Source of the DNA: Promethearchaeati archaeon
GTDB lineage: Archaea; Asgardarchaeota; Heimdallarchaeia; JABLTI01
Assembly (NCBI GenBank): GCA_013166835.1
Contig: JABLTI010000010.1
Location: forward strand, 1-49,540
Reading direction: 5' to 3'
Length of the DNA: 49,540 nt
The notes under the pieces were generated by a model. The model searched no databases. It was given only the letters and a program-made list of their open reading frames with translations, and was not told the DNA's origin. The stretch's first letter is position 1, and each line of letters starts with the position of its first letter. Below are positions 1-29,756 of this stretch, one piece after another. Position numbers and translations under genes: made by a program.

Positions 1-47
1 AGTATTGATTTAAATACTCGGTCGTTTCATCTGTATGTAGTAAACTA

Positions 48-70
48 CTATAATATAGTATATTACTATA
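48..70. promoter_or_regulatory. Overlapping AT-rich inverted repeats upstream of the AbrB-like gene; possible operator
   Basis: TACTAT-AAT-ATAGTA overlapping TATAGTA-TAT-TACTATA; low complexity, so could be chance. Confidence 0.3.
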
Positions 71-116
71 TTTCCATCTTATTGGGTGATTAGTGGTTTT
101 TTTAGGGTGCCGGTAG

Positions 117-482
117 ATGAATAAAGAACAGATTATACGTTCGACTATCAACTTACTCATTACTGAGAATCACAACCTTCTTTACTTCAACATTCCTAAA
201 GAAATTGTTCAAAAATTAGCCTTAACTGAAAACGATCTCTTGGAGTACGATGTTCGCGAGAACCAATTTTTCTTCCGAAAAAAGGGTTCACAATATTTAC
301 CTAAAGAAAATCAACTTAAAATTTTCTCAGGATTGCTGGTTGAACGTAATATTACACGAAATAATACGGTCCTTAGAACAAACTTACCCAAAGAAGTTGC
401 CCAACCTTTGGCTATCCAAAAGGGTGACAATGTTTTGATAACTTCTGATGGGAAAGTAATTGTTGGTCATAAAAAAACTTGA
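117..482 (+). CDS. Tandem AbrB/MazE/SpoVT-like (swapped-hairpin) DNA-binding protein
   Basis: Two internal copies of an AbrB-like pattern: 'FNIPKEIVQKLALTENDLLEY' and 'TNLPKEVAQPLAIQKGDNVLI'. Confidence 0.65.
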   Translation: MNKEQIIRSTINLLITENHNLLYFNIPKEIVQKLALTENDLLEYDVRENQFFFRKKGSQYLPKENQLKIFSGLLVERNITRNNTVLRTNLPKEVAQPLAIQKGDNVLITSDGKVIVGHKKT

Positions 483-506
483 ATGAAAAATACAGGAGAA
501 TGAAGA

Positions 507-3218
507 TTGCGTATAAGAGAAAGAATAATGGTGACTTTTATCGTTTTACTTATTGTCCCCCCCGTAGTAATGATCACTGTTTCAAGTGTTCGTATTAGCA
601 GGGTTTCACGGGATAATACAAACGATTCTTCTGATGCATTACTTACTGAAGAAAAAGAACATCTTTTAAGATTGTCTTCAGATGAGTCACAAAAAATCAA
701 TGAGCTGTTCGATCAAATCGTTGCAGAAGTCACGATGTTGGACAGTTATGCAGAGGATTTGTTCAATAACAAGATTCCGATAACTCCTTACCAATCATAT
801 TGGTGGGATAATGAATCCGAGTTTCTTGAAACAGGAAGAGTAATTCCTGGCCTTCACTACGAACCAGATTATGATTCTTTTATTTCATATGATAACAGCT
901 GTTATTATTTACCTCGAACTTATATTACCAATAATTTAAGTGGAGACCCATTTAACTGGGATACAGACTTACAGTATCTTCTTGACACATCCTCAAACTT
1001 AGACATTGCATTCAAAAACATGCATGAAGCAAATCCAAATTACGTTTGGATTTATATGGCTTTCACACATCCCTCTTATTCATTGTTCAGGAACTATCCA
1101 TTTGATAGTATGGCCTGGACACAGGATTTAGATGAAGATGATATAATAAATCCCCCAGAAGAGGATTGGGATCCCCGTGGTGAAGATTTCTATACAATTC
1201 CCGCGGCAATTAGTAATACTAGTTCAACTACAGCATTTATTGCTCCATATTTTGATCCAGTTGGGTTACTCATATCCGCCGGGAGACCAGTATATTTTGA
1301 CAATGGTACACTCATAGGAATTGTTAGTGTTGATATAACAGTAGCGACAATGCAAGAAAGCATTTTGAATTTAGACGTAAGCGAAAATGGATATGCTTTC
1401 TTAATTGACAGCGAAGGTTCATCGATAACTCATCCTGGATTAGTGGATGATTTCGTTCCTATTTTGGATTTAGAAATGGCTGATTCAACAGCTAGCGAAC
1501 AAGCTGCTTTTCAATTAATTATTAATGATATGAAGAGTGGTGGAAGCGGTCAAGAAGAGTTTACAAAGGACGAAGGAGACACATGGTATATTTCTTATGA
1601 TTCAATTGACGCTGCTGGTTATTCTCTAGCACTTGTTGTTCCTGAAGATGATATCCTTGCTCCAGTAATTCAATTACGTGAAGATATCATGGGCAGAAGT
1701 ACAAACAACATACTCATTTCAGTTGCTTTGCTAGTACTCGCTTTAGTACTCATTATATTTGTTTCAGTAAGCGTCTCAAGAGCAACAGTTGAACCAATTC
1801 AAGATTTCATAAACTTCTCAAAAAGAGTAGGGTCAGGAGATCTTTCGAGGGATCTAGATGAAGATGTTGCTATACCGAGAGAAATCATGGGACTGCATGA
1901 AGCGCTGGATGGATTACTGACGGCTTTACGGTTTGGGAATACGGATTACTATGAGGGAAATCTGGATTTGGCGTTCAATAACTACTTGAAAGCTCTGAAA
2001 CTGTTTGAGACAACCCAAGACCAAATGGGTATGGGCGTTTGCTTAAATAACATAGGCAATGTCTACAGGGAATGGGGCGATCTTGTCCAAGCAAGAGATT
2101 TCTATGCAAAAGCAATAGCTGTTGCTGAAAATCTTGATGACAAAGTAGGAAAGGCTTCTAGGTACAATAATTATGGACTTGTTCTTCTTGATAGTGGAGA
2201 ACTAGACGAAGCTCAGAAGTACATTGAACGAGCTCTCAAACTCAATGAGGAAATAAACAATACTCGAGGTCGAGTGTTATGTTTGAATAACCTTGGTTTA
2301 ATTCACTTTAAACTCGGGTCTGTTAAACTAGCCTTTGGTTATTATCAAGATGCAATGAAGCTTGCAAAATCAGAGGATTTTGTGAGAGGAGTTGCTCATA
2401 GTTTGCTTAACTTGGCTATGTTTTATCTTGAACAATTCGATGTTCATAGTGCGAAAACACACATGAATCAAGCTTTGGAAAGCGCCAGAACTGTGAATGA
2501 TGTTCTTCTTGAAGAAGAAATCCTTGAACGACTTAAACTTGTTGAGCGTGATCTTGGAGATGATGCCAGTCAAGCTGAAATCAAACAAGCTTTAGAAGTT
2601 ATTCGAGGAACAGCCACCCCACAAAAGAGCGTATTATACGTTTTAGATTACAGTGGTTCAATGAGTGGTTCCCGAAATAGAGCTTCAGTTCGTGGTTCGA
2701 TTGATTTGTTTAAGACTGCAATTAAGGATAAAGACACTGTAGGGATCATTACTTTCCATACAACTAGTCGTATGATTCTTCAACCTATTCCAGTAAGAAA
2801 TAATCGAACTAAAATTCAAGAAACCATTAAACGATTGACAAGACCAAATGGCAATACTGCCTTATGGGATGCCGTTGCAGATGCTATCGATTCTCTCGAA
2901 AACATTGGTGGCACTCAAAGATGGTTAGTTCTACTTACTGATGGTGAAGACAATTCTAGTCGACGAACAGCTAATGAGATTAATAAGAAGATTAGCAAAT
3001 TAAAATCCGCTTTGAATCTAGTCGTCATAAGTGTTGGTGATATCGGAACAGATGAGGCAATCCTCATGGAGCTATGTGATAGAACAAATGGAACCTTCAT
3101 AAAAATCACAGATTCTCGAAGTGTTCATAAAGAAATCGAAAAGGCCTTCAAAACTGTTGGTCAATTGATGAGTCAGGCTCAAGTCTCTGTAGAGGGGCTG
3201 GTCTTGGATGATATGTGA
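507..3218 (+). CDS. Membrane receptor: TM - extracellular dCache_1 - TM - HAMP - TPR repeats - vWA (MIDAS)
   Basis: TTG start after AGGAG. N-terminal TM; Cache motifs 'WIYMAF..FRNYP', 'WDPRGEDFY', 'APYFDPVG', 'GIVSVDI', 'GYAFLIDSEG..ITHP'; second TM; HAMP 'EPIQDF..VGSGDLS..EIMGL'; TPRs 'CLNNIGNVY', 'YNNYGLVL', 'LNNLGLIH'; vWA 'VLDYSGSMS..GNTALWD..LLTDGED'. Confidence 0.85.
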   Translation: MRIRERIMVTFIVLLIVPPVVMITVSSVRISRVSRDNTNDSSDALLTEEKEHLLRLSSDESQKINELFDQIVAEVTMLDSYAEDLFNNKIPITPYQSYWWDNESEFLETGRVIPGLHYEPDYDSFISYDNSCYYLPRTYITNNLSGDPFNWDTDLQYLLDTSSNLDIAFKNMHEANPNYVWIYMAFTHPSYSLFRNYPFDSMAWTQDLDEDDIINPPEEDWDPRGEDFYTIPAAISNTSSTTAFIAPYFDPVGLLISAGRPVYFDNGTLIGIVSVDITVATMQESILNLDVSENGYAFLIDSEGSSITHPGLVDDFVPILDLEMADSTASEQAAFQLIINDMKSGGSGQEEFTKDEGDTWYISYDSIDAAGYSLALVVPEDDILAPVIQLREDIMGRSTNNILISVALLVLALVLIIFVSVSVSRATVEPIQDFINFSKRVGSGDLSRDLDEDVAIPREIMGLHEALDGLLTALRFGNTDYYEGNLDLAFNNYLKALKLFETTQDQMGMGVCLNNIGNVYREWGDLVQARDFYAKAIAVAENLDDKVGKASRYNNYGLVLLDSGELDEAQKYIERALKLNEEINNTRGRVLCLNNLGLIHFKLGSVKLAFGYYQDAMKLAKSEDFVRGVAHSLLNLAMFYLEQFDVHSAKTHMNQALESARTVNDVLLEEEILERLKLVERDLGDDASQAEIKQALEVIRGTATPQKSVLYVLDYSGSMSGSRNRASVRGSIDLFKTAIKDKDTVGIITFHTTSRMILQPIPVRNNRTKIQETIKRLTRPNGNTALWDAVADAIDSLENIGGTQRWLVLLTDGEDNSSRRTANEINKKISKLKSALNLVVISVGDIGTDEAILMELCDRTNGTFIKITDSRSVHKEIEKAFKTVGQLMSQAQVSVEGLVLDDM

Positions 3219-3230
3219 GGTGATTACAAA

Positions 3231-4718
3231 ATGGCACTACGCGATTTTATTAGAAAAAGAAGTATCCGATTCAACATTATGGTTAGTTTTGTACTTCTCT
3301 CTTTAATCTTCATAGGTGGAATTGGTGGACTTTCATATCTACTCTTCCAAAGAGCAGGAGAGCAAACAATAGTGGACAGTCGAAATGCTCTTGTTGATCA
3401 AATCAAAGAAAATATTGACATCACTGCTGACAAGAACTCACAAATCATAAATGAAAAGCTCTCAAGTGCAGAAGCTATGGTTCAATATCAAGCATCTGAA
3501 TTAGAATATCTCTTCTCCGGGAATAACCGATACGGTGACCGGGATGTTTACTATGATTATGTCTTCGAATATAATCAATCATATGCGCCTACAGATTTGT
3601 ATAACGACATACCTTACGGTGTGAACCTTAGCTGGGATTACTCGAGTTATTACTTAGAAGGATCAAATTCAACACACTATCAACCAAAAGCAGGAATACA
3701 AAATATTACTCTCGAAACAGTAGCATCTATGGATTATGTCTTCCAATATATCCATGACAATGCTCCGGAATTCAGATGGCTGTATATAGCATTTGAATTG
3801 AAAGATGTTGATAATACAGACTTGTTCATCAATTATCCAGGAAGCATACTAATGGAAGATGACATCTTACGAAACAATCAGTCTGAATGGTATGAAGCTC
3901 ATACTGAAGATTGGTACATGGATGTTTATGATGGAAACGGCTCTATAGTCTTTACAGAACCCTATACAGACGAATTTGATGGTGTACCACTTATCACAAT
4001 TGGACGATTAGCTAAATTCGACAATGGAACTGATCTAGCTGTTATTTGTGGTGATATTTCCATCGATGACATGGTTGACAAAATCATCAATGTGCAAGTC
4101 TTAGATACAGGATATGCATCTTTAATCACATCTAGTGGATTGGTTGTTGCACATCCAGATCCATTATCTATACCCGATTTAGCAAATCCTGATTTCAAAC
4201 ATATCTCAGAGATTGAAAAGAACCTTGATAGTTCCTCTGCATTAAGCCTTGCTGATATAGACGAAATAACCTCTGGAGATTCTGGTATTCTTGAGTATAC
4301 TCGAGATGGCCAAGAACGATACTTAGCTTATCAACCAGTGGGCAAAGGTGATTACATTAGTATAATCATTGTTCCGGTTGAAGAAGCTCTAGAGGGTATT
4401 GAACCTGTAGAAGCTCGAATGAACGAGGCAATCAGAACTAACTTGAACACTATCTGGATAATTGTTGGTGCAAGTTTTGCAATTGGTATTACTGTAGGAT
4501 TAATCCTTACAGCATACATAACAAGACCTTTCACACATCTCATCAAAGTAGCTCAATCATTATCTACAAGACGTGCGCGGAAAGACATCATGGAAGGAAT
4601 CATGTTAAACATAGATCCAGAATTACTGCAAAGCGAAGACGAACTCGGTGAGCTGACGCGAGCTTTCAAAGGAATGATAGATTCCGTTCAACAAGCAGAG
4701 CGGGAGAAAGATGATTAA
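3231..4718 (+). CDS. Membrane receptor: TM - dCache_1 - TM - HAMP, no cytoplasmic output domain
   Basis: GGTGA RBS. Paralogous Cache motifs 'WLYIAF..FINYPG', 'AHTEDWY', 'TEPYTD', 'CGDI', 'GYASLITSSGLVVAHP'; HAMP 'ITRPFTHL..DELGELTRAFKGM' followed by a stop. Confidence 0.85.
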   Translation: MALRDFIRKRSIRFNIMVSFVLLSLIFIGGIGGLSYLLFQRAGEQTIVDSRNALVDQIKENIDITADKNSQIINEKLSSAEAMVQYQASELEYLFSGNNRYGDRDVYYDYVFEYNQSYAPTDLYNDIPYGVNLSWDYSSYYLEGSNSTHYQPKAGIQNITLETVASMDYVFQYIHDNAPEFRWLYIAFELKDVDNTDLFINYPGSILMEDDILRNNQSEWYEAHTEDWYMDVYDGNGSIVFTEPYTDEFDGVPLITIGRLAKFDNGTDLAVICGDISIDDMVDKIINVQVLDTGYASLITSSGLVVAHPDPLSIPDLANPDFKHISEIEKNLDSSSALSLADIDEITSGDSGILEYTRDGQERYLAYQPVGKGDYISIIIVPVEEALEGIEPVEARMNEAIRTNLNTIWIIVGASFAIGITVGLILTAYITRPFTHLIKVAQSLSTRRARKDIMEGIMLNIDPELLQSEDELGELTRAFKGMIDSVQQAEREKDD

Positions 4719-4743
4719 TCTTCTCCCATTTTTTATCTTTTTT
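4702..4743 (+). terminator. Hairpin plus T-tract after the second Cache gene
   Basis: GGGAGAAAGAT-GATTA-ATCTTCTCCC followed by ATTTTTTATCTTTTTT. Confidence 0.55.
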
Positions 4744-4756
4744 AGGAGAAAGTCAA

Positions 4757-6553
4757 ATGAAATGGAAACTAGATGATAGTAAACTAGTATATGGCGTAGG
4801 TAGTAAAGATCTATACTATCTTGATATAAACAAAGAAGGAAAACTTGAACTTGTATTAGAAGGTCAAAGAATCAGTTTTGAGAAAATTATTGACACGTTT
4901 AAAGAAAAAACGAAATATGATGAAGCTTCCTTCGCAATTAGAATCCCCCAATTGATTTCATGTCAGATTAAGAAACTGATTTTAGCATTTGCTGAAGCTA
5001 GAGAGAAGTATAATTATCAAAGTAAATATTATCCAATTTACCCGATTAAAGTTAATCATTCTAAATTTATTATTGATACAGTTATCAAAACTCATCCTAC
5101 TTATGGATTTGAATCAGGAACGAAATCTGAATTCATACTTTTACTTCAAGCATTGAAAGATGAGAAGCATCGTTTGATTATGTGTAACGGTGCCAAGGAT
5201 CGAGAGTATTTGCAATCAATAAAAGAAGCAATTACTGATGGTTTTAAAGTTTGTATTTCGATTGAATCAGAACAAGAAATGCTAGATACTCTTGATGTTT
5301 TACCTCAAGAGAATTATCGGCTTGCTCTTAGAATAAAACCTTATGTGACTTTACATGGTCATTGGGGAGCTTCTAGTGGGAGGAATTCCAAATTTGGTTT
5401 AGCAATTGGTGAATTACATGATGTTATTGATGTTTTGAAGGAGAAGAAAGCAACTCATTTGCTAACTATGTTACATTCACATCCTGGTTCTCAAATTACA
5501 GATTTGGCAGGATTTGAAAGATTCGCTACTTTTGTTGCTCAATTTTACAAACTCCTCCATGAACGTGGATTCACAAATTTGAAGACAATCAATTTTGGCG
5601 GGGGTTTACCTATTGATTATGATAATCGCCTTGATGAAGATTTTATGCAAAAATATGCTGAAATTTTTGTCAAAGTGCTTTCAAAGAAATTACCTAAATT
5701 ACAGCCTACTATAATGACTGAATCTGGAAGAGCAATCACAGCTTTATCCACAATTATTATAGTAAAAACCATAGATAAATATTCAGCGTATCCCAAGACG
5801 TATTGGAATAAAACATTTCTTTCTCACTTTTACAAAGAAATAGAAGAATACCAAGATGTTAAATCAGCAAATGATGCTCTCAAGAAATGGACCTCTTGGG
5901 AAAAAAGGAAACCTCCACTGCTTTTTCTTGAAGAACTAAATGATTATGAGTTCGTTGCTCTTGAATTAAAGAGATTACTCCGTAAAAAATATTTTAGTTT
6001 TGATGATTTTGAAAAACATTTAGAGAAATCAGCAGCAAAAGCATTGTTGAAACCGGAATACTCTGTTCAAGGCAATTTTTCAGTTTTCAATTCTATAGGA
6101 GATCTTGTATTAGTCAAACAGTATTTTCCAGTTATTCCAATTAGTAGTCTACATGTGCAACCAGAAACAATTGTACGTTTATTTGATATTACATGTGATT
6201 CCGATGGAGAAGTAGCAATTTATCATCCACCAATTAGTGAGAAGAAACTAGCTACTGAGGATGATTATCAACTTACTTTTACAGAACCATTTGAACTTGG
6301 AGGATTTCCTGTTGGAGATTTAAAAGAACTAAAAGATAGTTATCTTATCATCCCTCTTGCTGGGGCTTACCAAGATATTGTTGAGTTTGATCACAACCTA
6401 CTTGGAGATCTACCAGATGTTTTAGTTGCTTTAGATGGAGCATGGTTAATTGAACTACTTAATGGAGCACAATCAATCAGTAGCATTCTAGCTGATGTTG
6501 GTTTTGATTGTGATGTTGATGATGATCCCTATTATGATAATGGTTCGAAGTGA
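4757..6553 (+). CDS. speA: Biosynthetic (bacterial-type, fold III PLP) arginine decarboxylase
   Basis: SpeA motifs in order: YPIKVN (PLP Lys), ESGTKSE, CNGAKD, SKFGL, HSHPGSQI, GGGLPIDYD, ESGRAITA, NFSVF, DITCDSDG, GAYQD. Confidence 0.85.
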   Translation: MKWKLDDSKLVYGVGSKDLYYLDINKEGKLELVLEGQRISFEKIIDTFKEKTKYDEASFAIRIPQLISCQIKKLILAFAEAREKYNYQSKYYPIYPIKVNHSKFIIDTVIKTHPTYGFESGTKSEFILLLQALKDEKHRLIMCNGAKDREYLQSIKEAITDGFKVCISIESEQEMLDTLDVLPQENYRLALRIKPYVTLHGHWGASSGRNSKFGLAIGELHDVIDVLKEKKATHLLTMLHSHPGSQITDLAGFERFATFVAQFYKLLHERGFTNLKTINFGGGLPIDYDNRLDEDFMQKYAEIFVKVLSKKLPKLQPTIMTESGRAITALSTIIIVKTIDKYSAYPKTYWNKTFLSHFYKEIEEYQDVKSANDALKKWTSWEKRKPPLLFLEELNDYEFVALELKRLLRKKYFSFDDFEKHLEKSAAKALLKPEYSVQGNFSVFNSIGDLVLVKQYFPVIPISSLHVQPETIVRLFDITCDSDGEVAIYHPPISEKKLATEDDYQLTFTEPFELGGFPVGDLKELKDSYLIIPLAGAYQDIVEFDHNLLGDLPDVLVALDGAWLIELLNGAQSISSILADVGFDCDVDDDPYYDNGSK

Positions 6554-6571
6554 AAAATAACTAGTATTTTC

Positions 6572-7057
6572 TCACTTCTTCTCTTTTATTTTTTCATAAA
6601 GACCAATAAGCTCAGTTTCCTCAATTATGTGGTCTTCCATTAATTTGATAACTTTCTTCTTTCCACTTTTCCTATCTAGTGGGAGTTTCTCATCTAAAGC
6701 GTATAATTTGAAAATGTATCTATGCTTTCCCCAAGGGGGGCAAGGACCCATATACTTGTTTTGGAATGCTCCGTTTCTCCCAACAACAGCCTTTTCTAAT
6801 TTACTTCCTTCAGCTATAGTTTTGGTGTCGGGATCCAAATGACAAATGACCCAATGAGTAAAGATCATTTTTGGGATTGGGACATCCGGATCAGTCATAA
6901 TAAGCACAAGACTTACTGCATTATTCGGAACACCTGAGATTTTAAGAGGAGGAGAAATATTTTCACCTTGGCAAGTATTTTTTTTCGGCATATCACCATT
7001 ATGTTTGAATGCAGGACTTGTTAATTTTAGTTTTCCCAGCTTTATCACCAAACACAT
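6572..7057 (-). CDS. YbhB/YbcL (PEBP/Raf kinase inhibitor-like) family protein
   Basis: 'LTSPAF', 'GENISPPL', 'DPDVP..FTHWV', 'YMGPCPPWGKHRYIFKLYALD'. The true start may be a few codons downstream. Confidence 0.9.
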   Translation of the reverse strand: MCLVIKLGKLKLTSPAFKHNGDMPKKNTCQGENISPPLKISGVPNNAVSLVLIMTDPDVPIPKMIFTHWVICHLDPDTKTIAEGSKLEKAVVGRNGAFQNKYMGPCPPWGKHRYIFKLYALDEKLPLDRKSGKKKVIKLMEDHIIEETELIGLYEKIKEKK

Positions 7058-7160
7058 TTTTTGTTTTCTTATTGATTAATTCTTTGGAAAATCCTAAAAA
7101 CAGTTAATGAGCAGTTGTTAAATCATAATAGCATATATAATTACAAAAAAAAACAAACTG

Positions 7161-8606
7161 GTGTTTGAGGAAATGAATCACAATAATATTTTGTTTAGAA
7201 GAGATAGAGATACTATTCTATTTGATGATGTAAACCTAAGAAACATTGAAACCAAATTTGGTACTCCAACTTATCTATTTAGTGCTGATCAAATTCGAAG
7301 AAATATCAAATTTCTTAGGGAAAAAATGCTAGAATATAATCCTCAAACCTCAATTGCATATTCAATGAAGAACAATATCATACCAGAAATCTGCACTATA
7401 ATTGCTGATGAAGTAGATTATTTTGAAACAACATCTATGCTCGAACAGAAGATTGTAGAAAAAATTATTCTTGAGAAGAAAAAAAATATTCATATTGTTT
7501 CTACTAATATTTACAAACCAGATGGATTAATAAAAGAGGTAATAGAGTATCCAAATATTTCTTCATCAGAAATTAATTCAGCGAAATGTCACAGTTTTCT
7601 TGCAATTGATTCATATCACGATCTTAAAAACATAGTAAAAGCTGCCCAAAGGCTAGGAGTAAAACCTAAAGTTTTGATAAGAGTTAATCCAGGTATTAAG
7701 ATGGACATTGAGGAAACTATCTTTGCTTCTGCTAATATTTCAGCAAAATGTGCAGTAGTGATATCAAACATAAAACCTATAATAAAGGCAAGTAATGATC
7801 CAACAATCAAGATTTGGTTACCAGAAAGGCAATTTAAACCTGAATTTGATACAGCAGAACGTTTAGTAAAGGAAGCCAATGAAAGCGAACATTTGGATCT
7901 GGTTGGTTTACATTGTCATCTTGGCAGTCAAATTACTAATATAGAATATTTTGATCGATTTTTTGAGGTAGTCACACGATTCTTCAAAATAATGAATGAA
8001 GAAATCAATGATAAAATGAAAATCCTTGATTTAGGAGGAGGATATCCTGTAGATTATGCTCATTGTGAGTGTGTTCCTACTATTGAGGATATTTCTAAGA
8101 GTTTATCCAAAAATATCAAAAATTCTGGTATAAATCCTGAGATTATTATTGAGAGTGGTCGTTTTATTACAGCAAATTCTGGTCTCTTATTATCGAAAAT
8201 TACCATTACAAAAGAAAATTCTGATGGTCATAAAATTGCGGTTCTTGACTTATCGACTTATAGTGATTTGCTAGATGTTTTAACAGCACAATGGAGTTAC
8301 AATTATTCGTTAATTAATGAACTACCAGATTCTGATCAAAAAGCCACTTGGAGATTAGTTGGAGGTACTAATGATACATTAGACCAATTGACTCCAAGGA
8401 TAGTCAAATGTAGTAATTGCAAAGAACAGATAATAGAAAAGAAAGAAATAACTTTTCCACGAGAGTTAGTAATTGGGGATATAATTGCAGTAAAATCAGT
8501 CGGAGCATATACAACATGTTTCAATTCTAATTATTGTGGAAGATCAAAACCACTAATTGTTTTAAAGGATTCAACGAGTAAACAACAAATACTAAGGATT
8601 AGATAG
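7161..8606 (+). CDS. Diaminopimelate/ornithine decarboxylase family (LysA-like) protein, divergent
   Basis: 'FGTPTY', YSMKNN (PLP Lys), 'LIRVNP', HCHLGSQI, DLGGG, ESGRFI, 'GAYT..FNSNY'. Confidence 0.8.
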   Translation: MFEEMNHNNILFRRDRDTILFDDVNLRNIETKFGTPTYLFSADQIRRNIKFLREKMLEYNPQTSIAYSMKNNIIPEICTIIADEVDYFETTSMLEQKIVEKIILEKKKNIHIVSTNIYKPDGLIKEVIEYPNISSSEINSAKCHSFLAIDSYHDLKNIVKAAQRLGVKPKVLIRVNPGIKMDIEETIFASANISAKCAVVISNIKPIIKASNDPTIKIWLPERQFKPEFDTAERLVKEANESEHLDLVGLHCHLGSQITNIEYFDRFFEVVTRFFKIMNEEINDKMKILDLGGGYPVDYAHCECVPTIEDISKSLSKNIKNSGINPEIIIESGRFITANSGLLLSKITITKENSDGHKIAVLDLSTYSDLLDVLTAQWSYNYSLINELPDSDQKATWRLVGGTNDTLDQLTPRIVKCSNCKEQIIEKKEITFPRELVIGDIIAVKSVGAYTTCFNSNYCGRSKPLIVLKDSTSKQQILRIR

Positions 8607-8683
8607 AAAATCAGATTTCTTGATATTTTTATATAGACAATTATTCTCTTTTACTACAAGAATAACTCAAGGGTGCACTTACT

Positions 8684-9040
8684 ATGTATAGAGACAGAAG
8701 AACTCTGAACTTAACAATTCTAATAATTGCTGTTGTTATTGTAACTGTAATTGCTATATCAATCATCTCAGTGAACGCAGTTACTGGTAGTTGGGGGATA
8801 TTTGAGATATTGGCAGCAATAGGTGGAGCATTACTTATTATTGGTGGAATTGGAGTTTATACGAGTTATGCAGGTGGTTTTACAGTCTCAAGTATTAGAT
8901 TGCATGCTCAAGCTCCTGAGGTTGCGAGAGCTGAAATGGATTATGCTAGAAAGAGAAGAAAAAATATTCCATGGATCAGTTTAATAATAGTACTTGTTGG
9001 GGTAATCCTTCTAACTATAGGACTTTCAAGAATTTGGTGA
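8684..9040 (+). CDS. Small 3-TM membrane protein, function unknown
   Basis: Three hydrophobic segments with a basic loop 'RKRRK'. Confidence 0.7.
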   Translation: MYRDRRTLNLTILIIAVVIVTVIAISIISVNAVTGSWGIFEILAAIGGALLIIGGIGVYTSYAGGFTVSSIRLHAQAPEVARAEMDYARKRRKNIPWISLIIVLVGVILLTIGLSRIW

Positions 9041-9105
9041 TTTTCTTTTTGGAAACAAACTTTTTATGTTTAACATTTTGAAACAAGAATGGATTGTGAG
9101 AGTAC

Positions 9106-9924
9106 ATGAATAAGAAATATTTCGATGCAAACAAAGAACTCTGGGATGAGTATTCAAAGCTACATTACGGAACAGAATCAGATGGATATAATGTAGAAGC
9201 ATTCGTGAAAGGAAAAACAACACTAAAACCATATGAATTAGAAGAAATGGGTGATGTGAAAGGAAAAACTTTGTTACATTTACAATGCCATTTTGGACTT
9301 GACACACTTTCATGGGCTAGAGAGGGAGCTATTGTAACTGGGATTGATTTCTCAAGTGAAGGAATAAAACTAGCAAAATTGCTTGCTAAAAGGGCTAATC
9401 TAAAAGGCGACTTCATTGAAACAAATCTCTATGATTTACCAAAAGTTCTCTCAAAGAAATTTGATATTGTTTATACTTCAATTGGAGTGCTTTGGTGGTT
9501 AAATGATTTAAAAGAATGGGGAAAAATCATAGCTAATTTTCTAAAACCAGGAGGGATCTTTTATATTGCTGAGATTCATCCATTCTCATCTGTTTTTGAT
9601 GATGAAACAAAAGATATCAAAGACCTACAAGTCTACTATAATTATTTTCATGACCCAAAGCCTTTGGAATTTACTGTTGATGGTTCTTATGCTTCGGGAG
9701 AAGAGAAGATGGAACCTAAGAAAGAGTATGGGTGGAATCACAGCATGTCGGAAATTATTAATTCCTTGATTGAAGCTGGTCTGACTATAGAATTTCTGAA
9801 TGAATATCCTTTCACAGTTTGGAAGCAATTACCATTTATGGAATGTGGCTCTGATGGTTATTATCGTTTAAAAGATCAAAAAGCGGAGATCCCTCTTCTG
9901 TTTACTTTGAAAGCTACAAAATAA
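9106..9924 (+). CDS. Class I SAM-dependent methyltransferase
   Basis: 'LLHLQCHFGLDTLSWAREGAIVTGIDFS', 'FDIVYTS', 'LKPGG'. Confidence 0.9.
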   Translation: MNKKYFDANKELWDEYSKLHYGTESDGYNVEAFVKGKTTLKPYELEEMGDVKGKTLLHLQCHFGLDTLSWAREGAIVTGIDFSSEGIKLAKLLAKRANLKGDFIETNLYDLPKVLSKKFDIVYTSIGVLWWLNDLKEWGKIIANFLKPGGIFYIAEIHPFSSVFDDETKDIKDLQVYYNYFHDPKPLEFTVDGSYASGEEKMEPKKEYGWNHSMSEIINSLIEAGLTIEFLNEYPFTVWKQLPFMECGSDGYYRLKDQKAEIPLLFTLKATK

Positions 9925-9930
9925 TTTATC

Positions 9931-9962
9931 TGGGGTTAATTTCATCCCCAAAAACTTTTTAT
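9931..9962 (+). terminator. Hairpin after the methyltransferase gene
   Basis: TGGGG..CCCCA stem, then an A-run and a T-run. Confidence 0.4.
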
Positions 9963-10109
9963 TTAGCTAGATTATTTTCTAAAGTTTGTAGCAAAGTACT
10001 GATAGATTAAACTCCTAGCTAATAATATGTGGATATTACAATCGTATCTATATACGAAATGCATATTGTTACTGGGTTAAATATCGATTAAGTTATAGGA
10101 GCGCGCATA

Positions 10110-10313
10110 TTGTCGAGTAGGAAAAATAGAGATGAGTTCAATAAAGAGATAGTTGATACACTGCAGAAAATAGTTCATCCAAAGCGATTAAATAGAATTT
10201 ACGATCGAGTTATTAATTTTCAAAAATCTCAGCAACACCTTGAACATCAGAAGTACGTTTTAGGAGTAATTCAAGAATATATTAAGGAAATTGATGGTTT
10301 TCTGCAAGAATAG
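10110..10313 (+). CDS. Small hypothetical helical protein
   Basis: TTG start with AGGAG upstream; 67 aa, amphipathic, occupies an otherwise empty gap. Confidence 0.55.
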   Translation: MSSRKNRDEFNKEIVDTLQKIVHPKRLNRIYDRVINFQKSQQHLEHQKYVLGVIQEYIKEIDGFLQE

Positions 10314-10328
10314 ATTCTGTGAGGACAT

Positions 10329-10751
10329 TTATTTCCATTCGAATCTATACCGTTTTCTATTGCTTAAAACACGCACTTCAGTGATTTCTAGTTTTATTAA
10401 ACCGAAATTTGGATCTGCTGGTTCTGTAAAGTAATCCTTAAAGAAAGATATTGCTTTTGAGAGTTTTTCTTTGGTTTTCAAGTCCTCAATAACATATGCT
10501 TTTCCTGTTGCTCTTATCATTCCTTTCAGTTTTTCTCGATCATTGAATGAAAATTCAAAGTTTGCATTTTCTTTTACTTGATCCATTTTTTCTTCATAAG
10601 ATCTACTTGTTAACCAGAATTCGTTATCACAATAAATAAGAGCCATTGGTCGAACTCTTGGTTGATTTTTTTCCACAGTAGAAAAGAAAACTAACGGCTT
10701 TTGTAAAAGGTGCTTTCTCACATCTTCAAATGTAAATTCTTGTTCAGTCAT
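10329..10751 (-). CDS. Pyridoxamine 5'-phosphate oxidase-like (FMN split-barrel) protein
   Basis: 'FSTVEKNQPRVRPM', 'KMDQVKENANFE', 'IRATGKA'. Start placed at ATG 10751 (MTEQEF) rather than 10811. Confidence 0.8.
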   Translation of the reverse strand: MTEQEFTFEDVRKHLLQKPLVFFSTVEKNQPRVRPMALIYCDNEFWLTSRSYEEKMDQVKENANFEFSFNDREKLKGMIRATGKAYVIEDLKTKEKLSKAISFFKDYFTEPADPNFGLIKLEITEVRVLSNRKRYRFEWK

Positions 10752-11060
10752 TTCTATCCCACAAACATTTGCTAAGTGTGTGATATAATTAAAATTAATA
10801 AGAATATACAAAAATCTAGATTAAATGTTTGATTCAGGGCAATTGATTTATTTCCTAAAGTAATTAATTCACTTTTTCTAAGTTTTTAATTAAGAATTTC
10901 TTTAAGTCATTTTAACCTTAGAGTACTTGTTGTTCACTTTCAACAATATAAGAACACTAGAAAATCCTTCATAAAATTAGTAGAATAGAATCATATCGAA
11001 CATACACTCCAGACTTCGTAAAAAATCTATAAAATGAGATTTATCTGGTGGATGGGAATG

Positions 11061-11084
11061 GAGAAGGACCCCCTCGTCCTTCTC
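11061..11084 (-). terminator. Perfect 9-bp hairpin immediately after the epimerase stop
   Basis: GAGAAGGAC-CCCCTC-GTCCTTCTC on the + strand; no immediate U-tract, so it may be a 3' stability element. Confidence 0.5.
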
Positions 11085-12158
11085 TTATTTGCCTGTTTTG
11101 CTTGGAATTGTATCGATTGGTTTAGTTTGGACACTTTTTGCTTTTGCCTTTTTGGTTTGTTTTGTGGTTTTCATATACTGTTTAACAGTTTTCAAATAAG
11201 CTCTATAATGAGGAGATAATCTGAGTAATTGATATCGTATTGCTGGTCTGAATATTCTTATGAAGATTTTTGCAAACGAATACCTTTTCTTTGTTTCTAG
11301 TACGTAATCAACATAGGAGTATCTTTGATATTTCAGAATTCTTTGGCTTTCGATTGTGTCCATATATCCACAGTGAAACGGTTCTTCACTGAATGCTTCT
11401 TCTGGTAAACTACCTATGCCCATTGCTTCTAACAAACGACCAACATATTCTGAATATGGAAGACGACAGCTTTCTCCTCCAGCAATATGCAAGATTTTAC
11501 CCCAAACTTCGGTGCTCTCTGAAGCATTTGCCATAGCTAAACCAGTGTCTTTTGTATGACACATTTCAATAGGGGTATCCAAAGGGACCTCATACATAAG
11601 TGGATCAATGCCTTGATCCATTGGTGGAATTGCTGCAAACCTAAAAATAGTCCAATTTAATCCCGATTCTCTTATCATTTTCTCACATCTAACCTTCATC
11701 CTTGCATATTCATCATGAGGACTAGGATTGAATTCGTCAGTGACTTTTATGACATAGTCACAGCCTTTATGTCTCACATCACCATATGTTGCGACAGAAG
11801 AACTAAAAATCAGTTTTGCTTTTCTTGGCATTTTCTTTATTGCATTAATGATGTTTCTTGTTCCACCAACATTTACGGGTTCAGCTAATTCGGGTCTTTC
11901 ATTAGCTAATGGGGGAATTATTGCTGCTAAATGAATTACAACATCAATTCCTTCTATAGCATCTACAACTTGTAAAGGATTTCTCAAATCTCCCCAAACA
12001 ATTTCTAACTTGTTACTAAACTTCTTGAACTTTCTTGCAGTGCGTTTATTCCTTCTTGTTGGAACATCAAAACATCTTACAATATGATCTCTTTTAACTA
12101 ATTCAGATAATGTACTTGAACCAACATTACCAAACGCGCCTGTGAGTAGTATTTTCAC
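11085..12158 (-). CDS. NAD-dependent epimerase/dehydratase (extended SDR, 3-beta-HSD-like)
   Basis: TGAFGNVG Rossmann motif, 'VIHLAA', 'NVGGT', 'SSSVATYG', YARMK (YxxxK); Lys-rich C-terminal tail. Confidence 0.9.
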   Translation of the reverse strand: MKILLTGAFGNVGSSTLSELVKRDHIVRCFDVPTRRNKRTARKFKKFSNKLEIVWGDLRNPLQVVDAIEGIDVVIHLAAIIPPLANERPELAEPVNVGGTRNIINAIKKMPRKAKLIFSSSVATYGDVRHKGCDYVIKVTDEFNPSPHDEYARMKVRCEKMIRESGLNWTIFRFAAIPPMDQGIDPLMYEVPLDTPIEMCHTKDTGLAMANASESTEVWGKILHIAGGESCRLPYSEYVGRLLEAMGIGSLPEEAFSEEPFHCGYMDTIESQRILKYQRYSYVDYVLETKKRYSFAKIFIRIFRPAIRYQLLRLSPHYRAYLKTVKQYMKTTKQTKKAKAKSVQTKPIDTIPSKTGK

Positions 12159-12159
12159 T

Positions 12160-12428
12160 TTTCATTTTTCTCCAATGCTTTTTTGATTCATTTTGAATCT
12201 CAGCACTATCTCACGTTTGTTCCTGTTTCTTCCGCAATGATCGGCGCTTGCAAACCAGATCAGGTCATTTCTGACAGTTGTTTTACGCTACCAGTATTGC
12301 TTGCCATTATAGAAAGAATCGGTACTTTATCCGATGTTATTATTTTTTAGCGGAATTCGATCGTTGGTAATGAGTAATTTGTAGAGGTTACTCGCAGAGG
12401 GTAAGTCCTGTCAAGTAAGACCTCTAAC
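12160..12428 (-). ncRNA. Candidate structured 5' leader / cis-regulatory RNA
   Basis: TTTAAATA TATA-like box near 12446-12453 on the minus strand, then several stems (see findings). Confidence 0.4.
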
Positions 12429-12559
12429 TATTTATTCTCTTGATGATATTTAAAGCTTTACAAACATGTAATAATTCTGTTGACAACGATTAGAAGGTTA
12501 ATTTCTTATCGAAAGAACATATTTATTGCTAAGAATACTGCAGTTAACTGGGTATTGTT

Positions 12560-13456
12560 ATGAAAATTACTGAAGTAGGCAAAAGAGGTATTGTTTTTAC
12601 ATTTGATGACCTCACGACAGAAGAGATGGAAGCACCAACAAATGTCTTTGTGATTATTGGTGAAAAGTATGTTTTCATCTGTGATACTTTTCTTGGACCA
12701 GGATCAATGGTAGGGGTCAAGGAGTATCTAAAGAAATATTCTGATAAAACTATCATTATTTTTAACTCCCACTACGATTGGGATCATCATTGGGGCAACT
12801 GTGCTTTTCCGGATGTAAGAATTTACTCTCATCATTTGACTCGAGATAAGATACTAGAGGAAGGAGAAAAGGGCCTTGAGACTTACAAGAAGTTTCAAAG
12901 AGGAGTGATTACAATTACTCCACCAAATACAGTATTCTATAATGCAATGTCTTTCATTGATGAAAAAGTGGACATTTTTCATTCTCCAGGACATACCGAG
13001 GATTCTAGTTCTTGCTTCGATTTAGAAAGCAATGTTTTGTTCGTAGGAGATAATGTTGAAGACCCTATTCCATACATTCGCTCAGATCTTGACGGTGTTG
13101 CTGAATATGTTGAAACGTTGGAATTATATTACATGCTTGAATTTGATAAACTCATACCAGGTCATGGTCCAATAGCAGATAAGAAGCTGTTAAAACAAAA
13201 TCTAGATTATCTCAAGCATTTTCCAGAGTTAGAGAAACCAATTGATGTGAAGAAATTAGGCAAACCATACTATCACATTCATTTGCATAATTTATCGACT
13301 TTAGCAGAAGAATTGAGTAAGAAAGAACAATATGAAGATGCTATAAAGTATTATCAACAAGTTGTCGAACATGGCAAGAAGTTTGAATTAATAAAGGCCG
13401 ATAGCATTAAAAGAGTCAAAGGAAAAATTGAAGAAATAAAGAAGGCAATGTCTTAG
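12560..13456 (+). CDS. Metallo-beta-lactamase fold hydrolase with C-terminal TPR-like helices
   Basis: 'SHYDWDHHWGN', 'SPGHT', 'FVGD', 'IPGHG'; tail 'LSTLAEELSKKEQYEDAIKYYQQVVE'. Confidence 0.85.
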   Translation: MKITEVGKRGIVFTFDDLTTEEMEAPTNVFVIIGEKYVFICDTFLGPGSMVGVKEYLKKYSDKTIIIFNSHYDWDHHWGNCAFPDVRIYSHHLTRDKILEEGEKGLETYKKFQRGVITITPPNTVFYNAMSFIDEKVDIFHSPGHTEDSSSCFDLESNVLFVGDNVEDPIPYIRSDLDGVAEYVETLELYYMLEFDKLIPGHGPIADKKLLKQNLDYLKHFPELEKPIDVKKLGKPYYHIHLHNLSTLAEELSKKEQYEDAIKYYQQVVEHGKKFELIKADSIKRVKGKIEEIKKAMS

Positions 13457-13947
13457 TCTTCTTTAGTAAATCTGCTATCGGATTTGGTTTTTTCATATTC
13501 TCGTTTTTCATACCAACCACTTTTGGCATTTCGAAAACAATCGAATTCCTGGAAATACGGTTTTACATCGAGTAAGGGAGTTTCATCAAGCATATCAACT
13601 CCTTTCACTTCTAATTTTACTTCATTCTTAAATGAAACAATATCTATTAATTCTACAACTGATATACCAATAGGATTCGGTCTATTTGGTGCGCGAACAG
13701 CGAATAAACCCATTATCTCTTCGCTTAGAAATGGTTTTACGAGTAATTCGAAATCTTTGCTTTTGTGGAAATGATAAATTAGAATTATATGAGAGAAATC
13801 CACAATTCCTTTGAGACCATTCATATATTTAAGCGGTAATACTACGGATCCTTCAGCTTCAGAGAATTTAGATTGAATAGGCATTCCTTCAACCGTCTTG
13901 AAAGGTGTCCTAATAACGCCAATTGGTTTGTAAACAATATCTTTCAT
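13453..13947 (-). CDS. tsaA: tRNA m6t6A37 methyltransferase TrmO/TsaA family
   Basis: 'KPIGVIRTPF', 'FSHIILIYHFH', 'GLFAVRAPNRPNPIGIS', 'GVDMLDETPLLDVKPY'. Confidence 0.92.
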   Translation of the reverse strand: MKDIVYKPIGVIRTPFKTVEGMPIQSKFSEAEGSVVLPLKYMNGLKGIVDFSHIILIYHFHKSKDFELLVKPFLSEEIMGLFAVRAPNRPNPIGISVVELIDIVSFKNEVKLEVKGVDMLDETPLLDVKPYFQEFDCFRNAKSGWYEKREYEKTKSDSRFTKED

Positions 13948-14056
13948 TTTTATCCCTACAAATTCTACTATTACTACATAGAATACCCAGTATTTGGATA
14001 TTTTTAATATTCATGTATGAAATATATAATAATTATCAAGAATAACTTATCGGGGA

Positions 14057-14662
14057 ATGCAATTGAAGAGAGAAATGCTAGTAATTTCGTTGACAAGCAT
14101 CTTAATTTTATCTTTGACAATAACTCTTCAAAGCCTTGTTATTTTTGAGCTTGGTAAAAAAAGTGGATTAGTGTTTGCTGATGAAGATGTTATCATAACA
14201 GTAAATGAAACCATTGCGAGTTTTTATGCAAGATATGCTGTAAAGAATTATGATGAAGTAACCAACTATTGGATTGCTTTACCTTTTGCATTAAAACCTT
14301 GGGATGTAAATTTAACAATTAATAATATCCCTTCTGATTTTTACTGGACGGTTTCTTATGTGGATTCTGAACCTTTACCTTTCGAAGCTATTAGATTTAA
14401 AGTACAAATTGAGAAAAACCAGAAATTGGATATAGAAGTTAATTATTTCAGGAATTTTGAGATTGTTGAAGAAAATAGTACAGAATATGGCTTGTTCAAG
14501 TATATAGTGGGATCAACAAAGAGTTGGAGTCAACCACTGGATTTTGCTTATTTTGAATTCTGGCAGGTAAAAAACTCAATAGAAACACTACTCGAAACAA
14601 GAGATTATTATAACTGGATGCCAGAAGAAACGTTTCTTTATTTTTACTTTAATATCATTTAA
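14057..14662 (+). CDS. Secreted or membrane-anchored beta-rich hypothetical protein
   Basis: N-terminal hydrophobic segment; 'FKYIVGSTKSWSQPLDFA' resembles DUF4424-like proteins (weak). Confidence 0.6.
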   Translation: MQLKREMLVISLTSILILSLTITLQSLVIFELGKKSGLVFADEDVIITVNETIASFYARYAVKNYDEVTNYWIALPFALKPWDVNLTINNIPSDFYWTVSYVDSEPLPFEAIRFKVQIEKNQKLDIEVNYFRNFEIVEENSTEYGLFKYIVGSTKSWSQPLDFAYFEFWQVKNSIETLLETRDYYNWMPEETFLYFYFNII

Positions 14663-14724
14663 GAGATAATACCTTAATGTAAAAAAAAGGCAATATAAAT
14701 GGGGTTGCTTGGAGATAAAGAATA

Positions 14725-15990: not shown

Positions 15991-16077
15991 AAATCCATTA
16001 GAAATCTCAAATTTTCTCTCAACTTTACTGTTCAAAAGGACAAGAATTATTTATAGGGAAAATTACATCATTCTGCT

Positions 16078-17880: not shown

Positions 17881-17889
17881 GAATTTTAG

Positions 17890-18672: not shown

Positions 18673-18877
18673 CTTGAAACCTCATAGATCATTATCTAGA
18701 TATGAAATAAAAAACTTAATACAAATCTATTAAATTAATTTTGAAATTTAATTATTTTATTAAGCTATTGTCAAGATTTTGATGATGTTACTGAGAGAGA
18801 AAAAAATCAATAAGAATTACTACCTTTAAATAACTAGTTGTAAAAAGTATCATAGATGTTATTTTGATGTTTGAGTA

Positions 18878-19852: not shown

Positions 19853-19864
19853 GGAGAATAAGAA

Positions 19865-21070: not shown

Positions 21071-21082
21071 GGAGGAAGACTT

Positions 21083-22327: not shown

Positions 22328-22339
22328 TTAATAATTCAC

Positions 22340-22386
22340 GAATATTAGGTAATTATATTAATTATTTAATATTCATCTAATTTTTT
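22340..22386 (+). terminator. 16-bp AT-rich hairpin after the ABC operon
   Basis: GAATATTAGGTAATTA-TAT-TAATTATTTAATATTC (two G-U pairs), with a T-run shortly after. Confidence 0.5.
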
Positions 22387-22479
22387 AACAATTCATCTAA
22401 TAAGCTGGTAGTTTTCTCTAGATAAAAATCCCTTAGGATTCACGGTTTTTTTCAGCTAAACTTGCCTAAAGAACGCGAC

Positions 22480-22488
22480 TTTTATATT
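22480..22488 (+). promoter_or_regulatory. TATA-like box for the longin-GTPase-7TM cluster
   Basis: TTTTATATT about 55 nt upstream of ATG 22541. Confidence 0.4.
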
Positions 22489-22540
22489 ACGAAAGTAAGA
22501 ACATATTGAAATCGATTTTTATCAATGGTGGTAGGAAAAA

Positions 22541-23035: not shown

Positions 23036-23053
23036 CACAGGAGAATAATTAAC

Positions 23054-23590: not shown

Positions 23591-23594
23591 AAAA

Positions 23595-24437: not shown

Positions 24438-24442
24438 AAAAT

Positions 24443-24836: not shown

Positions 24837-24859
24837 GAAAATAAAACGGAGCTAATAAA

Positions 24860-26452: not shown

Positions 26453-26455
26453 TTT

Positions 26456-29753: not shown

Positions 29754-29756
29754 AAA

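Follow-up and report, generated by a model that had tools for sequence, protein, structure and literature searches.

A conserved pair of paralogous dCache-HAMP receptor genes in Asgard archaea: a probable two-subunit sensor with a TPR-vWA scaffold output next to an arginine decarboxylase

Receptors of the dCache_1-HAMP type follow a common plan, i.e., a transmembrane (TM) helix, a double Cache module, a second TM helix and a HAMP domain. They occur in bacteria and archaea. The chemoreceptors PctA, Mlp24/Mlp37, TlpQ and McpU belong to this group, as do a histidine-kinase sensor from Methanosarcina mazei (PDB 3LIB/3LI8) and receptors with SpoIIE-type phosphatases. Here, we analyze two adjoining genes, A and B, located in a 49,540-nucleotide stretch of DNA from a Promethearchaeati archaeon (positions 1 to 49,540 of contig JABLTI010000010.1, assembly GCA_013166835.1), which we refer to as the window. 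The encoded proteins show the same succession of elements as the receptors named above. Their best solved relative is 3LIB (E 2.9e-16 with a profile of B), and 3C8C and 5AVE are related as well. Structure comparison places a B homologue next to dCache-HAMP receptors whose outputs are GAF, SpoIIE, cyclase or kinase domains (TM-scores 0.62-0.72). In contrast to all of these, A and B come without kinase, methyl-accepting chemotaxis protein (MCP), cyclase or phosphatase domains, they form a fixed pair of paralogues, and the output consists of TPR and vWA domains in A and is missing altogether in B. Moreover, their ectodomains are unusually long and the arginine that contacts the ligand carboxylate is replaced. 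A and B probably represent an undescribed, Asgard-specific two-subunit sensor with a TPR-vWA scaffold output that is tied to polyamine metabolism. We know of no fixed two-paralogue HAMP receptor described so far. Neither a Cache-HAMP-TPR-vWA protein nor the A/B pair was found in the literature searched, which leaves out most subscription journals and supplements, and the data sets of PMC8915833 and PMC10589655 may include these proteins. According to the accessible part of a 2018 census of archaeal two-component systems, Cache domains occur almost only in Methanomicrobia (PMC5847659).

Gene A starts with TTG and gene B with ATG. The two open reading frames (ORFs) are separated by a spacer of only 12 nucleotides (nt; 3219..3230), and the proteins are 27% identical over about 500 residues (BLASTP, E 5e-32), which bears out the description of two adjoining paralogous dCache-HAMP genes in a preliminary description of the window. 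For comparison, genomes were scanned for relatives of B, using one genome per species. The best 80 of 106 stretches were kept as 79 loci, all of them from archaeal metagenome-assembled genomes. Their taxonomic range is that of the record labels, namely Heimdall-, Hod-, Hermod-, Thor- and Promethearchaeota, one Bathyarchaeia and unnamed archaea. Gene order was derived from our own ORF calling combined with phmmer, and 71 loci with at least 300 nt upstream of B were considered testable; in the other eight, B lies at a contig edge. Of the 71 testable loci, 70 have A immediately before B in the same orientation. The paired A genes match Cache, TPR and vWA throughout and encode 899-985 amino acids (aa) when complete. 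The gap between A and B mostly measures 2-16 nt, and the identity of the B proteins to that of the window ranges from 35% to 98%. Note that the locus set was retrieved via B, such that A genes without B are outside the reach of this count. The concern voiced in the preliminary description that the two genes might not be conserved as a pair is dispelled by this neighbourhood analysis.

In a quickly built maximum-likelihood tree with the sensor modules of 30 loci, one branch parts all A from all B sequences with maximal support (Shimodaira-Hasegawa-like approximate likelihood ratio test, SH-aLRT, 100), and the same three subgroups are repeated on both sides. It follows that the duplication predates these lineages and that the genes have apparently been travelling together ever since. 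A set of distant A-like proteins (P0046, P0051-P0057) falls on the A side of the split. These proteins are about 32% identical, have the same Cache-HAMP-TPR-vWA build and retain a canonical amino-acid motif including the arginine. Both kinds of A occur together in at least one genome (CP070760.1), which also harbors locus L016. The closest relatives of A and B stem from records labelled Heimdallarchaeota (96-98% identity), which places the source of the window in the Heimdall group of Asgard archaea, and in the searches made the system is almost confined to Asgard-labelled genomes. Relatives with 63-72% identity are also present in records labelled Zixibacteria (P0016/P0094) and Bathyarchaeia (L003), which are probably mis-binned or mislabelled Asgard contigs.

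Gene B stops right after HAMP, as originally noticed; the protein ends about ten residues past this domain. Its Cache part is recognized by Pfam as dCache_1 with 65.4 bits (cut-off 45) and is flanked by hydrophobic helices, and the HAMP domain of the window copy reaches 23.9 bits against a cut-off of 25. When 26 diverse B proteins with identities to the window copy down to 38% were aligned, dCache_1 was found in 26/26 and HAMP in 23/26 (E<=0.01), and none of the 26 contained an enzymatic or MCPsignal domain. The aligned proteins terminate 8-12 residues past HAMP helix 2, with the exception of two that extend into a zinc ribbon and HEAT repeats. A word-indexed search retrieved 153 relatives of B. 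The best 120 of these comprise 283-670 aa and consist of Cache and HAMP according to precomputed domains, eight of them with additional HEAT repeats, and an enzymatic domain is not present in any of these 120. A search for a fused, longer form of B among proteins of 868-2475 aa likewise gave no such protein, which is weak evidence; its four matches were three A-family paralogues and one hybrid kinase that matched weakly (E 9.4e-4).

On first sight, the missing output suggests that a truncation has left B over from a normal receptor, or that it lies next to A by chance, and the preliminary description had pointed to homologues with an output domain as the sign of such a truncation. Neither the 26 aligned nor the 120 listed homologues have one. 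This explanation, for which nothing but the first impression of a missing output speaks, is refuted by the existence of a full-length and deeply diverged B family with a conserved end and with A as its partner in 70 of 71 loci, and we give it practically no credence. Judged from the alignments, B is a large family of full-length proteins predicted to be devoid of an output rather than a broken gene. One subgroup of these proteins (P0105-P0110, P0114 and P0126; 640-670 aa; loci L009, L010 and L014) carries a CxxC zinc ribbon and HEAT repeats after HAMP; the corresponding genes are still located downstream of a normal A gene. A HEAT protein that stands alone is also encoded in the window (41774..42391, -); it shares 33% identity with the HEAT part of these variants, a likeness that may exist at the level of the repeats only.

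Protein A belongs to a family of which we found 58 relatives, 54 of them with 815-963 aa. In the window copy, residues 220-375 match dCache_1 (PF02743) with 44.7 bits, just below the Pfam cut-off of 45, and PF02743 is precomputed for all 54 relatives of at least 815 aa. While Pfam does not call a HAMP domain in the window copy of A, 29 of 38 juxtamembrane segments of the family match PF00672 at E<=1 (best 1.1e-5), and the divergent relatives P0258, P0316 and P0286 pass the HAMP cut-off with 33.9 to 49.9 bits. In addition, Pro430 in the first (AS1) and Glu459 in the second HAMP helix (AS2) of A are invariant in 75 sequences. At the family level, the predicted HAMP domain of A is clear. Both proteins have two hydrophobic segments and a basic N-terminus, a topology that predicts the Cache modules outside the cell and HAMP, TPR and vWA inside.

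HAMP helix 2 of A runs without interruption into the first TPR via a junction (R475, G477 and N478) that is invariant in 75 sequences. Many Pfam TPR models match residues 471-690, with TPR_12 on top (89.9 bits), and five repeats of this kind together with a capping helix can be read from the alignment. Within this region, Asn492, Asn515, Asn518 and Asn555 are also invariant in the 75 sequences. The subsequent vWA domain (residues 709-863) is recognized by VWA_2 and VWA_3 with 42.7 and 44.1 bits, respectively (cut-off 27). Its metal ion-dependent adhesion site (MIDAS), composed of D714-x-S716-x-S718, T784 and D812, is intact and does not vary among the 63 complete A proteins, which come from 62 loci and the window. 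In full agreement with these results, the preliminary description had assigned about five TPRs to the end of A, along with a vWA domain whose MIDAS is intact. When compared with the PDB, the TPR region matches designed TPRs best, and LGN/GPSM2 and Pins are the best natural matches (E ~4e-17). The best match for the vWA domain alone is that of CLCA1 (E 9.5e-7), and by language-model features (Atlas) its nearest neighbours are small bacterial stand-alone vWA proteins.

The window was scanned with Pfam for 40 ORFs (6 + 34, the latter all of at least 100 aa; ORFs below 100 aa beyond position 9000 were excluded). None of these matched HisKA, HATPase_c, MCPsignal, cyclase, PP2C or Response_reg, and the earlier statement that kinase, MCP, cyclase, phosphatase and response regulator are missing from the window holds for this set. 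For A and B themselves, an identity as histidine kinase was rejected on the grounds that HisKA and HATPase_c are absent from both, with only sub-threshold NCBIfam kinase models lying over TM-HAMP or TPR. An identity as MCP was rejected as well, since MCPsignal is found neither in A or B nor in the 26 B-family members. A PADLOC search for anti-phage defence gave only generic TPR models for A and none for B, the neighbouring decarboxylase or the AbrB-like protein upstream of A, and we discarded the reading as a known defence system.

What kind of output does A provide? A search with its TPR-vWA part against 1.84 billion representatives gave 133,884 matches at E<=1e-3, mostly generic TPRs; the library carries no taxonomy and is silent on the spread outside Asgard archaea. 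Among the best 150 matches, 23 align in a single stretch over nearly the whole query, and most of these have about 860-920 aa and an A-type N-terminus. P0316 and P0286 combine dCache, a HAMP domain above the cut-off, TPR and vWA. In P0258, the same HAMP-TPR-vWA arrangement is found behind an unrelated polytopic membrane N-terminus, and the cassette thus behaves like an output module serving different inputs. The preliminary description had suggested that signalling occurs by protein contact and that this may be an undescribed type of transduction. The existence of a HAMP-TPR-vWA output cassette agrees with the first part, whereas contact signalling is not new in itself: chemoreceptors likewise have no enzymatic domain and act as scaffolds.

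The combination of vWA and TPR in a membrane-anchored, enzyme-free setting is also known from the Bat proteins (BatA, BatB and BatC), and enzyme-free vWA and TPR domains are typical of scaffolds. In principle, A and B may therefore form a Bat-like membrane-anchored structural or assembly complex that does not signal at all, with the Cache modules serving surface binding and the neighbouring decarboxylase being linked by co-expression only. NCBIfam indeed finds BatA over the vWA domain (25.6 bits, cut-off 380) and BatC over the TPRs (20.5 bits, cut-off 175), albeit far below the cut-offs, and MoxR ATPase, DUF58 and other Bat partners are missing among the 40 ORFs scanned, such that an identity as Bat aerotolerance-type system was rejected. 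To our knowledge, Bat proteins carry neither Cache nor HAMP. Further arguments against a purely structural complex are the conservation of pocket residues in both A and B and the invariance of the HAMP-TPR junction, as expected if helix motion is passed on. In addition, dCache_1 with TM and HAMP is a module for signal input and relay wherever studied, as stated in the accessible text of PMC8915833. We regard a structural complex as improbable.

The eukaryotic proteins alpha2delta and CACHD1 unite two dCache_1 domains and one MIDAS-bearing vWA domain in one chain, while A and B distribute these modules over two chains. The same parts list in the archaeal group closest to eukaryotes raises the thought that A/B are relatives or forerunners of alpha2delta/CACHD1. 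Searches of the PDB with the whole protein indeed returned alpha2delta-1 (E 8.7e-8) and CACHD1 (E 1.8e-6), and the B profile gave 1.8e-7 and 8.2e-7, respectively. The parts of PMC8915833 at hand place the insertion of vWA near the last eukaryotic common ancestor and derive the eukaryotic Cache domain from bacteria. However, the whole-protein matches are sums of weak Cache and vWA contributions without a single significant stretch, prokaryotic sensors match the Cache part far better (1e-16 to 1e-12), and the vWA domain alone did not find any alpha2delta chain at E<=0.01, CLCA1 being its best match. The vWA domain of A is predicted to be cytoplasmic, C-terminal of TM2, HAMP and TPR, whereas that of alpha2delta is extracellular and inserted in Cache. 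Furthermore, the Atlas groups the vWA of A with small bacterial vWA proteins, and the A/B pockets do not have the amino-acid motif that alpha2delta keeps. An identity as alpha2delta/CACHD1 was rejected, and a direct evolutionary link appears very improbable to us.

The ligand class was approached via the pocket. In the amino-acid motif of dCache_1AA sensors, Y121, R126 and W128 hold the carboxylate, and the amino group is held by Y144 and D173 (residues numbered as in PctA), as given in the available portion of PMC8915833. The corresponding positions were obtained by aligning the B profile with 3C8C and 5AVE, both of which are sensors of amino acids. Glutamate takes the place of R126 in both window proteins (Glu226 in each), and the equivalents of Y144 and D173 are Tyr248 and Asp276 in A and Tyr245 and Asp275 in B. 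Across the families, the R126 equivalent is never arginine in 63 A proteins (E in 49, Q in 9), and among 68 B proteins, 41 have E, 20 have D and 6 have Q at this position, with N also occurring. The equivalents of W128, Y129, Y144 and D173 are kept in A and B. The replacement of the carboxylate-binding arginine in the window and throughout the A/B families led us to reject an amino-acid sensor of the dCache_1AA type.

Sensors of amines and polyamines (dCache_1AM, TlpQ/McpU) resemble A and B in the retained aspartate and tyrosine for the amino group and in an acidic residue replacing the arginine, as far as the comparison at few pocket positions goes. The dCache_1AM group is defined by an AM_motif and a small insertion over the pocket (PMC10589655), and the comparison with it covered the shared aspartate and aromatic positions. 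In the accessible text of PMC10589655, 3LIB is treated as an amine sensor and dCache_1AM is assigned to a single archaeal phylum, Halobacteriota. The very acidic Cache pockets of McpU and TlpQ bind agmatine and putrescine at sub-micromolar affinity, as can be taken from the part of PMC6234866 that we could consult. Agmatine would be the product of the SpeA-type arginine decarboxylase encoded next to B. Retention of the amino-group residues together with loss of the carboxylate arginine makes an amine or polyamine-type molecule likelier than an amino acid. On the basis of these few positions and the gene context, such a molecule is the likely signal. The ectodomains of A and B measure about 370 aa and are larger than usual double-Cache modules, with the Pfam matches covering the second half only. 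A conserved, aromatic-rich stretch of about 70-80 residues precedes the Pfam-recognized part in both proteins (A residues 90-170, ~775..1015; B residues 95-170, ~3515..3740).

A probable link to polyamine metabolism comes from the gene neighbourhood. Clustering of all neighbouring ORFs revealed a third partner that the preliminary description had missed, a SpeA-type protein of ~600-614 aa that adjoins the pair in 67 of 79 loci. In 63 loci, its gene comes next after B in the same orientation (median gap 28 nt), and in four loci of the Hod type it lies divergently upstream of A. Of the 12 loci without an adjoining speA-type gene, 11 do not provide at least 600 nt of flanking sequence on at least one side, and in the twelfth (L013) the gene is located two genes upstream. 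Adjacency in two different gene orders implies that the link has survived at least one rearrangement. The decarboxylase of the window scores 321.7 bits against a cut-off of 369 (PRK05354) and 306 bits against 624 (TIGR01273), and a Hod-type copy passes the NCBIfam SpeA cut-off at 388.6 bits. The window protein aligns from end to end with arginine decarboxylase from Campylobacter jejuni (PDB 3nzp, E 2.9e-53). Since Lys98, which binds pyridoxal 5'-phosphate (PLP), and the motif C480-D481-S482-D483 are invariant in 26 sequences, the enzyme looks active. GGAG or GGTG, resembling Shine-Dalgarno sequences, precede each of A, B and speA.

Both B and the decarboxylase end in acidic tails. The B tail was evaluated for 68 complete proteins, in 64 of which the end-of-HAMP motif could be located. 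It does not exceed 25 aa in 63 of these 64, and across those 63 it has a median length of 7 aa, is half acidic and carries a median net charge of -2. Hod-type B copies end in an acidic-aromatic motif. Among complete neighbours of SpeA size, 58 of 63 including that of the window contain [DE]PY within the last 20 residues. The five exceptions are two proteins with N-P-Y further in and three Hod-type proteins with a different end. The tails of B and of the decarboxylase look like docking peptides. LGN/Pins TPRs bind extended peptides, TPRs of the Hop and LGN/Pins types bind extended or C-terminal acidic peptides, and the MIDAS site classically takes an acidic side chain. The TPRs of A resemble those of LGN/Pins and Hop with regard to the PDB match to LGN/Pins and the asparagine ladder, and the acidic tails of B and the decarboxylase fit into this picture.

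We propose, with moderate confidence, that A and B belong to one receptor system with the TPR-vWA scaffold as its output and a functional tie to the decarboxylase. A and B would be the two subunits of a membrane receptor system that is co-transcribed with the SpeA-type arginine decarboxylase. The double-Cache modules of both would bind an amine or polyamine-type signal outside the cell, and the two HAMP domains would relay it, most simply through a four-helix bundle of an A:B heterodimer via TM2 and HAMP. The sole output would be the cytoplasmic cassette of A, in which the second HAMP helix continues into the first of five TPRs and the metal site of the vWA domain after them looks functional, and this cassette would bind a partner protein rather than catalyze a reaction. 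The acidic tails of the arginine decarboxylase and B are the best candidates for binding. HAMP motion may change what the TPR groove or the MIDAS holds, so that the external ligand would alter docking of the decarboxylase and hence its activity or location.

The more specific version, a heteromeric amine/polyamine sensor whose cassette captures or releases the decarboxylase by its D-P-Y tail with the B tail as competitor or latch, is put forward tentatively; in this detailed form we consider it unlikely. If true, such a docking circuit would allow an extracellular signal to set polyamine synthesis directly, without phosphorylation, second messengers or transcription. HAMP domains would then have a third kind of output in the form of a switchable scaffold, and antizyme-type control would have a counterpart in prokaryotes. 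Eukaryotic antizyme, a binding protein responding to the polyamine level, acts on ornithine decarboxylase. The likeness is functional only: there is no homology, the enzyme is a different one (SpeA-type), and the regulator proposed here would be a membrane receptor. In the accessible parts of the literature on Asgard archaea and arginine decarboxylase, including PMC10407285, we found nothing on such regulation.

In principle, the same observations can be explained by two separate homodimeric receptors: A would signal alone via TPR-vWA, and B would modulate A in trans, for example as a ligand sink or through docking of its tail to the MIDAS or TPR groove of A. Homodimers are the normal form of HAMP receptors. 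This main rival can also draw on the distant A-like proteins P0046 and P0051-P0057 with their canonical amino-acid motif and on the conserved acidic tail of B. Other findings that speak for it at the same time weigh against the single receptor system. As the HEAT-bearing variants show, B can have its own binding module in one lineage and may then signal by itself. At locus L052 (5082..9425, record CP070658.1), the sole exception among the testable loci, B and the decarboxylase are intact and the place of A is taken by a divergent, unrelated gene for a 931-aa coiled-coil protein with a TrmB-type helix-turn-helix (HTH). Finally, the ESM Atlas contains clusters of bacterial dCache-HAMP proteins (360-510 aa) that have no output, and nothing points to an A-type partner for them; some of these clusters are labelled fragments, and they serve as a lead only. 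On the other hand, 24 of the 26 aligned B proteins have no output themselves, and B adjoins A in 70 of 71 loci, a pattern that fits a shared complex at least equally well. Separate homodimers are therefore possible but in our opinion rather unlikely.

Three further points count against the single receptor system tied to the decarboxylase or against its details. The gene neighbourhood alone fits regulation of the decarboxylase and plain co-expression alike. The PDB sequence matches of the B profile do not include TlpQ and McpU, which are polyamine sensors. Last, there are Hod-type decarboxylases without the D-P-Y tail, yet Hod-type A proteins do not exhibit a clear burst of change in TPR or vWA. 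When co-variation between tail loss and the TPR/vWA part of A was assessed for the Hod type, no clear signal was obtained: conserved columns had changed in 2 of 29 cases in TPR, 9 of 48 in vWA and 6 of 60 in the ectodomain, mostly conservatively.

The positions of the features discussed here are compiled in Table 1.

Table 1 Features of the A/B/speA gene region in the window
Feature	Position	Strand	Description and basis
Gene A: dCache_1, TM, HAMP, five TPRs, vWA	507..3218	+	903 aa; Pfam and alignment
A, TM helix 1, residues 7-25	525..581	+	Kyte-Doolittle 2.78; basic N-terminus MRIRER
A, predicted extracellular double-Cache module, ~residues 30-398	594..1700	+	Pfam dCache_1, MCP-like_PDC_1; PDB 3lib, 3li8
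A, TM helix 2, residues 402-420	1710..1766	+	Kyte-Doolittle 3.28
A, predicted HAMP, ~residues 425-476	1779..1934	+	Family-level Pfam matches, conserved residues
A, TPR region, five repeats and capping helix	1935..2606	+	Pfam TPR_12, TPR_1
A, vWA, ~residues 705-890	2619..3176	+	Pfam VWA_2, VWA_3
A, MIDAS	2646..2660 (DYSGS); 2856..2858 (Thr784); 2940..2942 (Asp812)	+	Invariant 63/63
Gene B: dCache_1, TM, HAMP, short acidic tail	3231..4718	+	495 aa; without output domain
B, TM helix 1, residues 16-34	3276..3332	+	Hydrophobicity
B, predicted extracellular double-Cache module	3348..4430	+	Pfam, PDB match, pocket columns
B, TM helix 2, residues 408-426	4452..4508	+	Hydrophobicity
B, predicted HAMP, residues 426-488, long inter-helix connector	4506..4694	+	Pfam 23.9 bits; HAMP in 23/26 family members
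B, C-terminal acidic tail, last 10 residues	4686..4715	+	Family tail composition
SpeA-type PLP-dependent arginine decarboxylase	4757..6553	+	598 aa, 38 nt after B; NCBIfam, PDB 3nzp
Decarboxylase, acidic-aromatic C-terminal tail (D-P-Y motif)	6512..6550	+	[DE]PY in 58/63
AbrB/MazE-type (SpoVT-AbrB) protein	117..482	+	121 aa, 24 nt upstream of A; Pfam MazE_antitoxin 37.8 bits, two stretches; NCBIfam AbrB-family 28.3 bits

The AbrB-type gene upstream of A belongs to a cluster found at seven loci and is located directly upstream of A in Heimdall-type loci L002, L003, L006, L007 and L017. It is a lineage-specific member of this gene row and a possible DNA-binding component. On the other side, speA is followed by a gene for a PEBP/Raf-kinase-inhibitor-like protein (6572..7057, -) and one for a second decarboxylase of the LysA/ODC-like type (7161..8606, +; 481 aa), for which Pfam covers the second half of the barrel only. 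A LysA/ODC-like decarboxylase follows speA in other Heimdall-type loci, too, and may also act in polyamine metabolism. A gene for a 481-aa beta-propeller protein that is not present in the window occurs in 54 loci. The protein has weak Pfam matches to propeller models and BBS2_Mid and none in NCBIfam. Its gene lies directly upstream of A in Thor-type loci (L020, L022, L024, L028, L036, L040 and L063) and convergently downstream of B in Hod-type loci (L015, L016, L019 and L045). In Thor-type loci, a gene of the histone-deacetylase family, possibly for an acetylpolyamine deacetylase, resides beside the propeller gene, and both precede A.

The remainder of the window (G+C content ~33%) encodes an Arf-family small GTPase (23054..23590, +; Pfam Arf, E 8.8e-37), a typical Asgard 'eukaryotic signature' gene, which is flanked by two ORFs without family match (22541..23035 and 23595..24437). 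A 468-aa fusion of a DHDPS-family protein with formaldehyde-activating enzyme (Fae) is encoded at 45697..47103 (-), and TrmO is encoded as well. At 35535..40488 (+), an ORF of 932 aa without Pfam match and with weak NCBIfam matches to proteins of cell cohesion and gliding overlaps by 17 nt with that for a 723-aa beta-propeller with LVIVD repeats, and the two may form a pair of surface proteins. Neither tRNA genes nor Rfam families at gathering score were detected in the 49.5-kb window (1..49540).

Little is known about environmental sensing in Asgard archaea. As a sensor module, the A/B system is deeply conserved across genomes of the Heimdall, Hod, Hermod and Thor types; it would couple a familiar input to a purely protein-binding output, with arginine decarboxylase as the candidate target. 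Should the pairing alone prove true, A and B would still represent a fixed two-paralogue HAMP receptor. If the complete model is true, the system would provide a simple example of receptor-to-enzyme signalling by docking and an entry point to the control of polyamines in those prokaryotes that are most closely related to eukaryotes.

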